Shown piece after piece: positions 23,200 through 61,599 of a stretch of 64,000 nt of DNA. Made by a program: the position numbers and the translations under genes. Location: positions 40,798,001 through 40,862,000 of the forward strand of contig CM052816.1 of the NCBI GenBank assembly GCA_028534125.1, written 5' to 3'. The stretch is from Lama glama. Its lineage: Eukaryota. Numbering within the stretch: the stretch's first letter is position 1; each line of letters opens with the position of its first letter. Below the pieces are notes generated by a model, which was not told the origin of the DNA, ran no database searches, and saw only the letters and a list, made by a program, of their open reading frames with translations.

Positions 23200-24420
23200 A
23201 ACTATTTCTCTAAAAAATTTAATAAAATAGGTAAACTTAGAAGTAAAATGGAAAGAAATTGAGGGAGGGTGTTCAGATATAATGTTAGGAATGAAGTAGA
23301 AACATAATTAGAGATAACCATACAAATTACCAGAAAAGAGGAATCTTGTGCACAATTTTCTGCCAATAGCTTTTTGAAAACTGAGATGAGACAGACATTA
23401 TCATTTTTTAAAATTTATTAAATAAGAAAACCTAACTGTACCAATAGACAGAAATGAGAATAATAATAGTCTAAAAGCTTTGACAAACACCAACTAAAAA
23501 GTTGGTTCAGACATTGAAAAGCTGAATTTACTAAATAGTTCTGAAAATCAGTATCCCCAGTAGTGTTACCAAGAAATGGCTTGTGTGCCCGCAGCGCAGA
23601 AAGCCAGATTCTGGCAAGTGGGCTTTTGCTGCAAAGTAAGTGCTCATTTGCTTACAAGAAGAAGCAAGAAGAACACACAGCTCGTGCTCAAGAGACTCAA
23701 ATTCCCCAAGGGCTTTCAGGAAAGGGTTTTTAAAGATAGTGTTAGGAGAGAGGGTTATAGGATGCATGATCAACCTGTGGACCTTCTTCTCACTGGTTGA
23801 TGGTGAAGTAACAGGGTGGTGTTTCAGGAATCTCAATTTTCTGATTCTAACCAGTCTAGGTTTCTCGTGTTTGTGATCTGCATGTATTCACTGTCCAAAA
23901 CTTAGGTGGTGGTCTTAGTTTCTACAGAACAACTCAAAGATACGCATCAGACTGTTATCTTTGTCCATTCAGTGGGAACCATGAGTCCTGTGACTCTACT
24001 GTCCGAATCACTAACTGCTGGAGTCTGCTCTTTGGAACTAGGGGACAGTGCAGGAGAGTAAGCCTTTTTTTCTACAAACAAGAAACAGGGGACATGGAAA
24101 GGCTTTTGTACCTGGGAAGGACTGCCAGGGTGCTGCTTGATTTCAAGCCCCCTTTTCTTTGATACTCCTTAACCCTGAGGGGAACAAGGACAAGGACAAG
24201 AAAGGAAATAAAGTTCTGGACAGAGAGATTAATCACAAACTTACTGATGATTAGGGGGCCTCGGTTGCACTAAGACAAAATAGAAACAGGTATAAAGGTA
24301 CCCAAGTCATTTTCTGAGGCTGATATGACTGTCATGAACTAGGAGCTTCCAATATAATAAAAAATATAGGGTTCACTTAGTACTATTGATTTAAAAATAA
24401 AAAATAAATTAGCTCCCAAA
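23200..24420 (+). mobile_element. Ancient L1 ORF2 remnant interrupted by an ERV1 LTR
   Basis: A-rich degenerate ORF2 (aagaaaacctaactgtaccaatag; cattttctgaggctgatatgac) on both sides of the LTR. Confidence 0.5.
23564..24269 (-). mobile_element. ERV1 solo LTR (MER41-like)
   Basis: TG...CA bounded (tgttacc...ggttgca), about 706 bp; ctcgtgctcaagagactcaaattcccc...agggtttttaaag and ctacaaacaagaaacaggggacatgg motifs of MER41-type LTRs in reverse. Confidence 0.75.
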
Positions 24421-27360: not shown

Positions 27361-28580
27361 TGAGGCAGGTAATGAGGTCCCAGCAGGTGAACCGTGCCAT
27401 CCTGGCTCTCGTATGTTGAATCAGCCCCTCACATCAACACTAGTGTTGGAAATTCACAGAACCCTGTAGGCCCTCTCCAAATATAAAGGCCCTTCCACGT
27501 CCCCTGCCTCTTGTTTGTAGAAAAGCTGAAGTCTCCCAGGCCTCCCTGAGTCACAAAAGAGCAGATTCAAGCAGTTAATGACAAGGACAGGAGAGTCACA
27601 GACTCAGTGTCTGCTGCATACCCCTGAGTGGTTTTACAGATACTCTAACTGGCACTAGAGAGAAAAAGCTAACTGCATGATGACCAGACTGCAGCCATGA
27701 CATGCGCTGCTCCATCTTGAGCAGTACTTCATCTCCACTTAGTGCAATTACAAAAACTGGCCTTAAGAGAATGGGGTAAACATTATTGCTTATTATAATC
27801 TGTATCTTTCTGGGTATCAAAATAATTGTAGCTTGTTCTGCCTGTACATGTAAACAAGCAACTAAAACTGTCAGCGAAGAGATGCTTCAAACCCATGCTG
27901 ATATCTTTCACTGTAAGATCTCGATGCCCTTTCTTAGTATGAAGTTACAGAAGACTGACCTCTGTCCCTATTCCCAAAGAAATGAAATGATATCTGATTG
28001 GGGGCGGGGGATTTGTTAAGCAGCTCTTTGTAGAAAACTGCCCTTGGTGGGAAACCCCTTTTCTTGTCAGTTTAGCAAAGCTATATTGTAACCAACTTTT
28101 AAACCAGGCACCCCCATGCTCTACTCCTCTCTGGCCCCAGCACACCCTTCAGATCTTCTGACCACACAATACCTTGCCTAACCTCTTTCCATAGAGCAAA
28201 GAAGTAAAAATGAAGAATAAGTAATTTACAGACGACCAGATCTCTTCCCTAGCTTCCCTGTCAGTCATCTCGTGAACAAACTATGTAAACAAGGTAGCAT
28301 CTAAAGATCACAAGATTTCATCAAGCCTGCAGGCAGTGGGAGACAGTGACTAGTCTGATCCTGTATCTCACTGAATAACTGCGGCTACTTCCTTTTTCCC
28401 TTTAAAAAGTTTCAAGGCCAAATCCAAGTAGAATCTTCAGAGTCAGTTTTGGGGGACACTGAGTCCACCATCTCCACAGATTGCTGGCATTCTGATTAAA
28501 AGCAGCTTTCCTTTCTACCAACAATTGCCTCTCAGTATTGATTTTCAAGCTAAGAGCGGTCAGACCTGAGTTCTGTAACA
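27361..28580 (+). mobile_element. ERV1-type LTR block (long solo LTR or nested LTRs)
   Basis: tgaggcag start, second LTR-like start tgttggaaattc at 27444, TATA-like tttaaaaag about 28400, polyA signal attaaa 28495-28500, end gagttctgtaaca at 28580. Confidence 0.75.
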
Positions 28581-28827
28581 TATTTTGCTACTCCCAGGGT
28601 TTCTCTCTGCTGGATATTTCAGCAGCTAATAATGTAAGGGGATCATCACAGCAAAAGCTCTTCCTACTTTATATCTCCCTGTTCCCCGAACTGACTGTGG
28701 CTTATATGAGTACTAAGTCTGAAACATATTTTGCAACATCTCGTGGGTTATAGATATATAGAAGCTCAGATGTGGAAACATTTCCAAATACATCCTCATT
28801 TAAAGTTTTTATGTTTTGTTTTTTCAG

Positions 28828-28903
28828 ATATAAGAGGGCTATTTACAGACTTACTGGATAGACTATAAACCATATGTGAAAAAATATATCCTAACTATAC
28901 ATA
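28828..28903 (+). pseudogene. Candidate exon E with one in-frame TAA
   Basis: Acceptor tttttatgttttgttttttcag|, donor ATA|gtaaat. 76 nt; phase-1 frame IRGLFTDLLDRL*TICEKIYPNYT, phase-0 frame I*EGYLQTYWIDYKPYVKKYILTIH. Confidence 0.3.
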
Positions 28904-29282
28904 GTAAATGATGGTGGCATTGTCTTGTCAGTTATTATTTTATTTCTTTATTATTCCATACTGGCTTAGCAGTATTTAGAGATTTAATATTTAGAAAACT
29001 TAGCATATTACTTAATGATATTTTAATAAAGTGAATATTATAAATTTGTGATGAATAATAATTACTTATCTTAGACTTTAAAGTTTATAAATCACTTTTC
29101 ATTAACATTTTTATATTTAATAGAATTGGGAAGATTATTTTAGAAAATTGGTTAAAATAATTGCATTTCTTTTAATGATAAAAGGTTTTTAAAAAACTGA
29201 TAAAAATAATATATGTCCTAACTAAACTTTCCTTCATTAATTATTAAGTTATGAGTTGACTATAGATTTTGTTATTTTTGGT

Positions 29283-29375
29283 TTTCATTTATTCTGCTCT
29301 AACCACTCCCAAAACATACAGGTATGTTTAAATAACAGGTATGTTTTGGGAGTGGTTAGAGCAGAATAAATGAAA
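29283..29375. repeat. Perfect 37-bp inverted repeat with 19-nt spacer
   Basis: tttcatttattctgctctaaccactcccaaaacatac (29283-29319) is the exact reverse complement of 29339-29375. Confidence 0.98.
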
Positions 29376-31119
29376 TCTTATTTAATAATTTCTTTAACAA
29401 TTTCTTTAATTTAATCATTTCTTTAATAATTGCTTTACTTATTCAATTGCTTTCTGTTCTAGGTTTTCTATTACATTAAGTACTTTATGTAATTAATTAA
29501 TTAGTTTGAAAACCTATGTTATCAAAGCATAAAGTTCAGAAAATTCAACCAAATAATTTAAAAAAATAGAACTATGTCATTAGATCTATAGTTGATTACA
29601 GGGTGAGAAATTGCGCCAAAGAAGCTGACCTGGACATTAGACAAAAACTTTGAATGGTATAAACTGCAAAAATAAATTTTATTCTACATTCAATGTCATA
29701 TTTGGAATTACACAGCAGGACTTATTTTCATTTGATACATCACATTGCAGAGAAAAGTTTTTCACACCTATTTCCATTGCTGCTTTCATTCTTTTTCCAT
29801 ATGTTTTAGAGTCATCAGTGTGCATACTCTCAAAGAATCTGTTTCTAATCTTACCTAAAATTCTAATGTTGCTTGCAACAACGTGGAAAAATTAGTGTTA
29901 TCAGAACAACTCTGTGTTCACTCTTTAAGTCGTGTTTTAAAGTCCATCCAAGAGCTAGTTGTTACATATTGTAATGGACAGGTTTTGCTTCAGAGGCTGA
30001 TTAATTTTATCGATTAACACTACAGCTGATTTACTAGCTTTTGCCTGCCCAGAGAATGCGTGATTCCTTGAGAAATAAGGTGAAGCTTGTTGAAAAACAC
30101 TTGCCAAGCTGTGTCCATTAGAGCAGAACCGAGGGGAAGCTGCTTCTCTTCCAGTGAATTAGACTGAATGAGCAGTCGCATGAACAAATGAAATTTTCTG
30201 CTCTGGAAATACTAAAGATAAGCAAAAGCTTAAACACTATGTAATTATAAAAAGAAAGCTGTGGTTGTGATGCTTATAGCATCGAAAAAAATTCAGTGTT
30301 AAGTGTAGGCTGGGGAAAGAAAATAATCATGTAGATAAATTGCAGTTATTTTATATTTTTTAGGTTGACAAATTTGCAGTTTTTTCAAATAGTCTTTATG
30401 TTCGCACTTATTTTTCAGGATATACATTTAGACAGAATTATGTACAAAGATAATGGCATCCAAAAAAAAATCTGTTTTGTTCTAATGCACAGCTCAGATT
30501 TTCAACTATGTGACTACTATTTTAAAAATTGTATCTCTTTTTAAAATAATTTCAGAAATGGATATAAATTGAATAAGAATCCTAGGACACAACTCCTGGT
30601 ACCCTTGTAGTGGCACAGTGGGTTGTCTTTATAAGTATTTGTAAGTAAAGTTCTGTCAGTATCCTTACCCAACAGTGTTACTGAATAGTAGATTAAAAAG
30701 TACACTACTATAAATTTTTCTCTATTCTGTTAAGTATTGATTGTCCTTCTCATTGCATTTAGGACAATTATAATCCCTTTAAAACTTTAACAAAACAAAA
30801 ACAACACAGCCACAATTAAATATCCAAGTACAAGTGAAAAAATAAAACTTTTCAGTGAGCCTGAACATGTACAAGAAAATGACTAACTCAATTCATAATG
30901 AAAGAGAATCAGTGAAGACACTGATCCAAAATGATCTGAAAAAGAATTAGAATTATTAAAGAATGTAGGGGATAAAAGGCAGTTATCAAGATCTCCCTCA
31001 CCAATCTTCAAATATAATTACAAAAAGGTAGGGAAAACCCACAAAAACAAGCTAATATATATATTCACCCTATCAAGAAGAAAATTTTAAGTACAATTTA
31101 ATGCTATGAATCTTATAAA

Positions 31120-33384: not shown

Positions 33385-34228
33385 GAAAAATCTAAACAAA
33401 CAACCTCACCTTACACCTAAAGCAACTACAGAAAAAAGAATTAACAAAACCCCAAATTAGTAGAAGGAAAGACATCAGAAAGATTAGAGCAGAAAAAAGT
33501 AGGGAATAAAAAATAATAGAAGGATCAATGAAACTAAAAGCTGGTTCTTTGAGAAGATAAACAAAATTGATAAACCTTTAGTCAGACTCATCAAGAAAAA
33601 AAGGGAAAGGGCCAAATTAATAAAATCAGAAACGAAAAAGGAGAAGTTACGCGCAACACCACAGAAATACAAAGGATCGTAAGAGGCTGCTATGAGCAGC
33701 TATACGCTAACAAGCTAATGGACAACCGACAAGGAATGGACAACTTCTTTGAAAGGTGTAATTTCCCAAGACTGATTCAGGAAGAAATAGAAAATATGAA
33801 CAGACTATTTATCAGCACTGAAGTTGAATCAGTAATTTAAAAACTCCCAACAAACAAAAGTTCAGGACCAGATGGCTTCACAGGCAAATTGTACCAAACA
33901 TTTAGAGAAGAGTTAACACCTGTCCTTCTAAAACTATTCCAAAAAAATTGCGGAGGAACAAATACTTTCAAATTCCTTCTGTGAGACCACATTCATCCTG
34001 TTACCAAAGCCAGACAAAGATCATACACCACGATCAAGCAGATTTAGCCCAGTGATGGAAAGATTTTCCAGTATCTGCAAATCATCAATGTGATACACCA
34101 CGTTAACAAACTGAAGAATAAAAACCAAAGCGTTTGATAAAGTTCAACATACATTTATGACTTAAAAAAAACTCTCCAGACAGTGGGCATAGAGGGAATA
34201 TACCCCGACATAATAAAGGCCATATATG
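33385..34228 (+). mobile_element. LINE-1 ORF2 fragment (linker to reverse transcriptase) with internal deletions
   Basis: aacaacctcaccttacacctaaagcaacta, gctggttctttgagaagataaacaaaattgataaacc ([13 protein letters not shown]), ggaccagatggcttcacaggcaaatt (GPDGFTG). Confidence 0.95.
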
Positions 34229-60214: not shown

Positions 60215-60733
60215 TATATTAAATTTCCCATTGCTGCTGCAACAAACTGCTACAAATTTAGTGACTTAAAACAACAAAAAAATTATGTTACAGTTCTCTA
60301 AGGTACAAGTCCTGCATGAGTTTCACTGGGCGAAAACTGTTGTGTTGGCAGGGCCATGTGACTTTCCAAAGGCTCCAGGTGAGAGTCTATCTCCTTGCCT
60401 TTTTCAACTTTTAGAAGCTGCCCACATTCCTTGGCTCATGGCCCCCTTCCTTTGTCTTCAAAGCCAACAACACTGCATTTTGGATTTTCCCTCCATAGTC
60501 ACTCCCCCCACTATTCTGCCTTTCTCTTCCACTTGTCAGAACCCTTGTGACTGCACTGTGCTCACCTGAACAATCCAGGGTCATCTCCCTATTTTAGTGC
60601 CAGCTGATGAGACACTGTAATTCCATCTGCAATCTTAATTCCCCTTTGCCAGGTAACTGAACATATTTCTAGGTTCCTGGGACCAGGAAGTAAACATCTT
60701 TAAGAGACAGGGAGGATTATTCTGCCAACCACA
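60215..60733 (-). mobile_element. MLT1D-like MaLR solo LTR
   Basis: attgctgctgcaacaaactgctacaaatttagtgacttaaaacaaca...gaagctgcccacattccttggctcatggcccc...attattctgccaaccaca. Confidence 0.92.
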
Positions 60734-61599
60734 CTTCTCAAACCATACTCTTTACTGTAGCACAGAGTGCTTCATGACCTAGACCACATATAGGAATGTT
60801 GCCACTTATGAAATGATCCCAAAGAATTTAAGATAAGATGCTAGAAAACAGAAGAGGCATTTCTTGATTCCAAGTCATCTTCAGAGAGGTTTTCATCACT
60901 GTTTGCTTATTTCACAAACCAGATGCTTTTTTTTCTCCTCATGAGTATAAAAAAGAAAATAGGAGGGAAAGATGCTCATATAGTTATCCACAGCAGGTAA
61001 ATTGTAGTGCAATTTTCAGCATCAGTAAAGTGTTATTTCTAAAGAAAGAGTAGTCAGGGCTTCATTTTTCTCATGTTCATTTCCAGAGTATTCATCTAGC
61101 CGCTCTCCTACCAAGTAGTTCAAGCACATATAAACATAACCAGTAGGCAGAACTGTACACAGAAAAACAAAAAAGTCCATATTATAGAAAGATGTTCACA
61201 AAGGGAGTATAAGCTTTTATGAAACCGCCATGTGAGAGTAGAGGGATGGGATTTGTGAAAATATAGTGTGCCATCAAAAAAGAATCAAGATGTCTTAATA
61301 AAAGAAAATATAATTTGAGTAGCTCTGCTTTAATTTTACGTTAACTATAAATGTAAGAAGATTTTAGGTTTTAAAAAACAAATTGTCAAATGAAGCATAA
61401 TTGCATAATAGAAGACTGAGAGCTGAATATTCAGAAGTCATTCAGCCAATCTGAATTTCTAAGTATTATGTGTATGTTTATTGTACATGCCCAAAGATTG
61501 CTATATGTACATTTTAGGATTATATGGGTATGTTGAATTCAGGGAGGAGCAGTTACTATCATGCAAAATCACAAGTAAACTTGGAACAAGCTCTCTGGT

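Follow-up and report, generated by a model that had tools for sequence, protein, structure and literature searches.

What produces a perfect hairpin in mammalian DNA, and does it do anything once it is there? The question is raised by a 37-bp inverted repeat that lies at a single locus (29283-29375), in non-coding DNA, of the 64-kb window, i.e. the whole stretch of Lama glama DNA analysed here. We consider that two successive template switches probably created it and that it probably has no function.

Anatomy of the hairpin

The left arm (29283-29319) and the right arm (29339-29375), 37 nt each, are 100% complementary, the latter being the exact reverse complement of the former, and they enclose a spacer of 19 nt (29320-29338). 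Re-measurement placed them at the same coordinates as the first-pass annotation had done. With the (TA)n tract set aside, the longest other perfect arm in the 64 kb measures 13 nt; the chance expectation for arms such as these is 4e-15 per window and 1.6e-10 per 2.5 Gb. RNA folding, proposed earlier as a check, bears the hairpin out with a z of -13.5, equally stable structures being found in 0 of 200 shuffles; as single-stranded DNA, the hairpin has an energy of -41.7 kcal/mol.

The spacer is made of four parts: a 2-nt centre (29320-29321), 8 nt complementary to the end of the left arm (29322-29329), 8 nt complementary to the left flank (29330-29337) and a single nucleotide (29338). The first two belong to a mini-hairpin at 29312-29329, in which the 8-nt inverted pair 29312-29319 and 29322-29329 surrounds the 2-nt centre, and which may represent the former centre of a tight palindrome. 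Folded as DNA, it has a 7-bp stem and a 4-nt loop, at only -3.0 kcal/mol. The third part is the reverse complement of 29270-29277, its 8-nt candidate template in the left flank.

A sequence search on the plus strand found one 12-mer as a direct repeat, at 29318-29329 and at 29335-29346, with no third copy on either strand of the 64-kb window; the second copy would be composed of 3 nt of microhomology and 9 re-copied nucleotides. Both this repeat and the mini-hairpin closed by its first copy had been pointed out before. Every base of the spacer (19/19) is traceable to local sequence, none being untemplated. Deleted in silico of 17 nt, the locus becomes arm, 2 nt and arm: a palindrome with a 2-nt centre.

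Presence in other sequencing runs

Among 24 listed sequencing runs, 15, carrying five organism labels, contain 0.89-0.99 of the sequence words of the region 28500-30200. Four of these 15 (X2, X10, X6 and X14) were aligned to the locus, in the form of contigs and not raw reads. The whole hairpin is seen in two of the four, X2 and X10, each of which has a 79-nt piece (29290-29368) with 0 differences that comprises the spacer and 30 arm bases per side. The two runs come from different studies (P2 and P6), years and organism labels, and neither is flagged as a possible source: the hairpin is present in other animals.

In both X2 and X10 the contigs split into the same three pieces, 28520-29312, 29290-29368 and 29346-30200, as is to be expected of an assembly graph of 31 letters at an inverted repeat with 37-nt arms. 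The 79-nt core has a depth of 7.2 and 12.2, against 7.9-8.2 and 12.5-13.9 in the respective flanks. Residual depth in two bins would fit one more piece of 37 nt at roughly twice the flank depth (14.9-15.0 against 7.9-8.2, and 23.0-23.1 against 12.5-13.9), with the proviso that contig depth is not equal to copy number.

Inverted repeats are prone to fold-back artefacts, and an artefact of assembly or library preparation had been named in the first-pass annotation as what absence from raw reads would reveal. The material compared is contigs rather than raw reads, which leaves this explanation some room; against it stands an identical 79-nt core, at near-flank depth, in two runs that differ in study, year and label. 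The artefact is largely refuted, and we find it scarcely credible.

The other two aligned runs, both of study P3, cover the locus in part. X6 has an unbroken contig from 28520 to 29346, which contains the left arm, the spacer and 8 nt of the right arm, the next one starting at 29395; in X14, the pieces cover 28520-29202 and 29339-30200. Among the pieces listed there is no joint, and a hole proves nothing: either dropout of the hairpin or a different allele may explain the gap. Word shares of 0.89-0.96 cannot separate carriers from non-carriers, since flank differences alone give 0.92 in X10. Five RNA runs, recorded or guessed as such, contain 0.07-0.14 of the words, a share that has no bearing on transcription. 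At position 29797 all four aligned runs have A where the window has C, which is either a private allele or an assembly error.

Copy number and a transposon reading

In all four aligned runs, the depth over the arms is accounted for by local pieces alone, down to 85% likeness. No second genomic locus with at least 85% likeness to the arms was found in these runs, a threshold that older, diverged copies could escape; the hairpin is therefore not a young MITE, and the multi-copy match that the first-pass annotation had held out as a counter-explanation did not appear. To its description of the surroundings we add that imperfect tandem copies (29380-29453) adjoin the hairpin.

The hairpin might still derive from a small transposon (MITE) or from a folded-back piece of a retrotransposon. 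The window is AT-rich DNA with LINE-1 remnants, and the frame 33574-33837 aligns with LINE-1 ORF2 chains of known structure, E reaching 5e-17. Eleven nucleotides of the right arm (29356-29366) recur in the window's LINE-1 ORF2 copy, at 33484-33494, and across a one-base shift the outer codons of the arm (29356-29376) read like the matching ORF2 stretch. On the other hand, comparison of the flanks at the arm ends revealed no direct repeat common to both, hence no target-site duplication, as the first-pass annotation had stated. The arms draw local pieces only, as opposed to a depth of 253-328 over the dispersed repeat of which 28500-28556 is a part and where each of the four runs also shows numerous loose ends. 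None of the arm's 12-mers recurs elsewhere in the window (0), and the alignments of arm plus flank to the rest of the window were matched by 19 of 25 and 13 of 25 shuffles. Aligned by itself, the arm reaches a score of 36, where the best shuffle has 34; its gapped match lies at 60717-60748, outside the LINE-1 copy. Beyond the 11 shared bases, a LINE-1 origin of the arm is unsupported, the flanks not lengthening the match, and a transposon of either kind is a highly improbable source of the hairpin.

Origin of the arms and of the spacer

The anatomy can be explained by two events. In the first, a polymerase would have run backwards over 37 nt before rejoining, and the product would be two arms separated by a 2-nt centre. 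This would be a four-point switch of class 3-2-1-4 or its mirror, with either arm as the ancestral one. In the second, set at the unstable centre of the new palindrome during replication or during repair of a centre break, synthesis would have broken off after 29329, taken 8 nt in reverse from the left flank (29277 down to 29270) and resumed 9 nt before the point where it had left off, via 3 nt of microhomology. The outcome would be a gain of 17 nt, with the 12-mer repeated, the old centre kept as the mini-hairpin and the spacer now 19 nt long; a wider spacer would in turn stabilise the repeat. We favour this order because the spacer is entirely local sequence and because, minus its 17 nt, the locus reads as arm, 2 nt and arm.

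The first-pass annotation had likewise proposed template switching, with a fold-back initiated twice. Such an origin, from a presumed one-armed ancestor, agrees with the anatomy and with the local provenance of the spacer; the doubled initiation comes close, and an old palindrome centre hit by a second switch that returns behind its point of departure is the simpler description. The match of the inserted 8 nt to the flank was spotted post hoc. Control contexts of 60 nt contain such a match in 18 of 3,180 cases, AT-rich ones in 6 of 565, so that its chance is about 1%, or about 1-2% with both flanks allowed in AT-rich DNA.

What is found at this single locus, reverse-complement copies of nearby sequence in the form of 37-nt arms and two 8-nt tracts, is what template switching leaves behind. 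Judged on its letters, the hairpin is likely an ordinary case of a known class, the scar of a template switch or of templated repair. Types 1-4-3-2 and 3-2-1-4 represent 31% of 794 human-chimp events (PMC5453318). They share with our locus the perfect local inverted repeat, the reverse copy of adjacent sequence and the setting in unique DNA; they differ in that the 12-mer repeat and the flank copy require here a second pair of switches. When point 4 lies before point 1, direct plus inverted repeats result, and many such cases are described in apes (PMC7954356). A direct repeat beside an inverted copy is just what this spacer contains, with the difference that the switch would here strike the centre of an existing palindrome, as read from one sequence. 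In an earlier survey, none of 794 and 90 cases had point 4 ahead of point 1 (PMC5453318).

Loss of central symmetry also has a precedent. According to PMC8701086, palindromes are stabilised by short spacers and a broken central symmetry, and breakage at the centre yields a stabler, spaced repeat, as it may have done here. The palindromes described there are long transgene ones, and in the mouse work that it cites deletions account for 93% of stabilising changes and inclusion of a spacer is called uncommon, unlike the 37-bp arms and the insertion at our locus.

The main rival of the two-step history is a single episode of double-strand-break repair with repeated templated synthesis, of the SD-MMEJ or polymerase theta type, again without function. 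Three inverted tracts (8, 8 and 37 nt) would then derive from one left-hand template or, in the mirror version, from an ancestral right side. All three indeed reverse-copy left-hand sequence no farther than 50 nt from the spacer, short tandem duplications lie next to the right arm, and one episode would yield an identical final sequence. Complex insertions with overlapping copies of nearby sequence, and snap-back priming between adjacent bases, are described in PMC2943611; like this spacer, those insertions combine short pieces of local sequence, direct as well as inverted, at joins with small microhomology. Such an episode nevertheless demands three or four switches in one event, as against two ordinary events of two switches each. 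Moreover, the inner junction of the long stem has two unpaired bases per side, and the stem thus lacks paired bases to prime a snap-back of 37 nt. We regard the single episode as unlikely, and note that the enzyme is not readable from one germ-line scar. That one or the other of these two function-free histories, two-step switching or single-episode repair, applies is highly probable.

In human genic regions, 31,007 new stems are reported, 6,054 of them of miRNA size (PMC10710096). Hairpins of this type arise by the thousands per lineage, and this one, as it stands, matters little. Its modest value lies in the spacer, in which a second event can still be read, one that may have opened up a tight palindrome.

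Age of the hairpin

The absence of mismatches had been taken as a sign of very recent origin, which is not supported. Substitution rates were taken to range from 1e-9 to 2.5e-9 per site and year. At these assumed rates (2.5e-9 to 1e-9), 0 mismatches in 74 sites give a 95% bound on age of 16-40 Myr. The haplotypes also differ at the flanks: X2 and X10 show 2 and 5 differences, respectively, from the window in 1,648 aligned flanking bases. The same hairpin thus sits on haplotypes up to 0.3% apart and is older than the split between them. A divergence of 0.3% would correspond to about 0.6-1.5 Myr at 1e-9 to 2.5e-9 per site and year, a figure derived from five differences only. Template switching can, in addition, restore perfect stems (bioRxiv 10.1101/2021.04.15.439925). 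The name 'newborn' is hence not borne out; as far as the letters go, a lineage-restricted hairpin is plausible.

Potential as a small-RNA precursor

Irrespective of its origin, the hairpin could in principle be expressed and processed to a lineage-specific miRNA or siRNA. Its 37-bp stem is inside the optimal range of 33-39 (PMC5340965), and its 19-nt loop attains the minimum of 10 nt given there and exceeds the enriched range of 8-16, the plus-strand flanks being predicted to extend the stem. The first-pass annotation had claimed a geometry fit for Microprocessor: the stem length suits it, and CNNC and a basal mismatch are missing. The helper motifs, namely a basal UG, an apical UGU, CNNC and a basal mismatch, are helpful and not obligatory. 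Most of the minus-strand flanks is unpaired (0.73 and 0.66), and a UGU, supplied by the inserted 8-mer, occupies loop position 2 of that strand; it is the only helper motif there, the basal UG being absent. The plus strand has a UG 4 nt before the stem and a UGU at loop position 6, with flanks predicted to pair. CNNC is absent from both strands, and neither has a basal mismatch.

At least 18 human miRNA genes owe their origin in part to template switches (PMC10710096). Loci such as hsa-mir-4713 and mmu-mir-3086 have, like ours, a pri-miRNA-sized stem and two events per locus. They come with expression evidence; 99 of 111 human loci are intragenic and 105 bear later mutations, whereas our hairpin has no known host transcript and no mismatch. 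Second events in that set invert in place, whereas here one would have inserted into the loop. Only 57 of the 6,054 suitable hairpins of human genic regions (0.9%) are annotated miRNAs according to the same source, for which the promoter is the limiting factor when new hairpins become miRNAs. Neither a host gene nor a CpG island was found in our window. X2 and X10 carry the hairpin in unaltered form, as they might a functional one, yet 0.11 and 0.28 differences are expected in 93 nt, making this identity expected without selection. Altogether, we give a processed small RNA a very small chance.

A more specific proposal has a slightly smaller chance still: that repair of its centre turned an unprocessable tight palindrome into a Microprocessor substrate in one step, the product being an expressed, lineage-specific miRNA. 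In this very doubtful scenario, the 17-nt insertion would have opened the 19-nt loop, the flank copy would have provided the apical UGU of the minus strand, and close relatives would possibly retain intermediate or one-armed alleles. If small RNAs were found, the locus would be a miRNA born by template switching outside primates and rodents, and loop creation by templated insertion would offer a route from palindrome to pri-miRNA.

Searches in known families and published material gave no relative. Over the 64 kb, 0 families of Rfam 15 reach their gathering score. The best covariance-model scores, 53.4 bits for mir-616 (RF00995) and 49.5 bits for mir-3145 (RF03498), are about half of the respective gathering scores (100 and 98), and the hairpin is a member of neither. 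We rejected these sub-threshold matches: mir-616 scores on both strands, many unrelated hairpin families obtain 30-50 bits, and the alignments consist mostly of pairing. A pattern of 22 nt from the arm has 0 matches in metagenome contigs, a search of low power for a mammalian locus. No description of the locus was found in the camelid small-RNA literature covered. The alpaca skin miRNA supplements, scanned file 4 excluded, contain 0 matches to four arm motifs, two of which are blind to RNA spelling; that study could hardly find this locus, as its novel miRNAs were predicted on the bovine genome. Likewise, the rows listed from a camel testis supplement have 0 matches to two motifs, its miRNA rows being names and not sequences.

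Extrusion as a cruciform had also been suggested. By analogy with the palindromes of PMC8701086, the spacer would work against it; short spacers go with higher mutability (review PMC12887540).

Surroundings of the hairpin

Imperfect tandem duplications of 12 nt and 29 nt (29380-29453, plus strand) begin 4 nt after the right arm and possibly belong to the same cluster of mutations as the hairpin. Among 56 candidate coding stretches (50 splice-flanked ones, delimited with a crude frequency matrix, and 6 nearby frames), 0 reach the Pfam cut-off. The best weak match, YibY, was discarded at 18.4 bits against a cut-off of 27. No 500-nt segment has a CpG o/e above 0.53. The hairpin would appear neutral, on a coding-exon search that could overlook host genes which are non-coding or far away; the locus may lie within a long intron or a non-coding transcript.

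Both copies of the 12-mer contain a good match to a 5' splice site, at 29319-29327 (GT at 29322, inside the spacer) and 29336-29344 (GT at 29339, at the start of the right arm); by the crude matrix, these two sites are among the top 10 of 3,155 plus-strand GT sites. A T-rich tract that ends in CAG (28800-28830), about 450 nt before the hairpin, resembles a splice acceptor; the short frame that follows it gave no Pfam match. Poly(A)-signal hexamers occur in both arms, one on each strand (AATAAA at 29365-29370, and 29288-29293); the motif is common in such AT-rich DNA. A bacterial promoter scan remained at chance level and is irrelevant to a mammal. Finally, the window contains a 68-nt inverted pair, 24068-24135 and 27457-27524, 78% complementary and 3.3 kb apart, whose members are probably two copies of one repeat.
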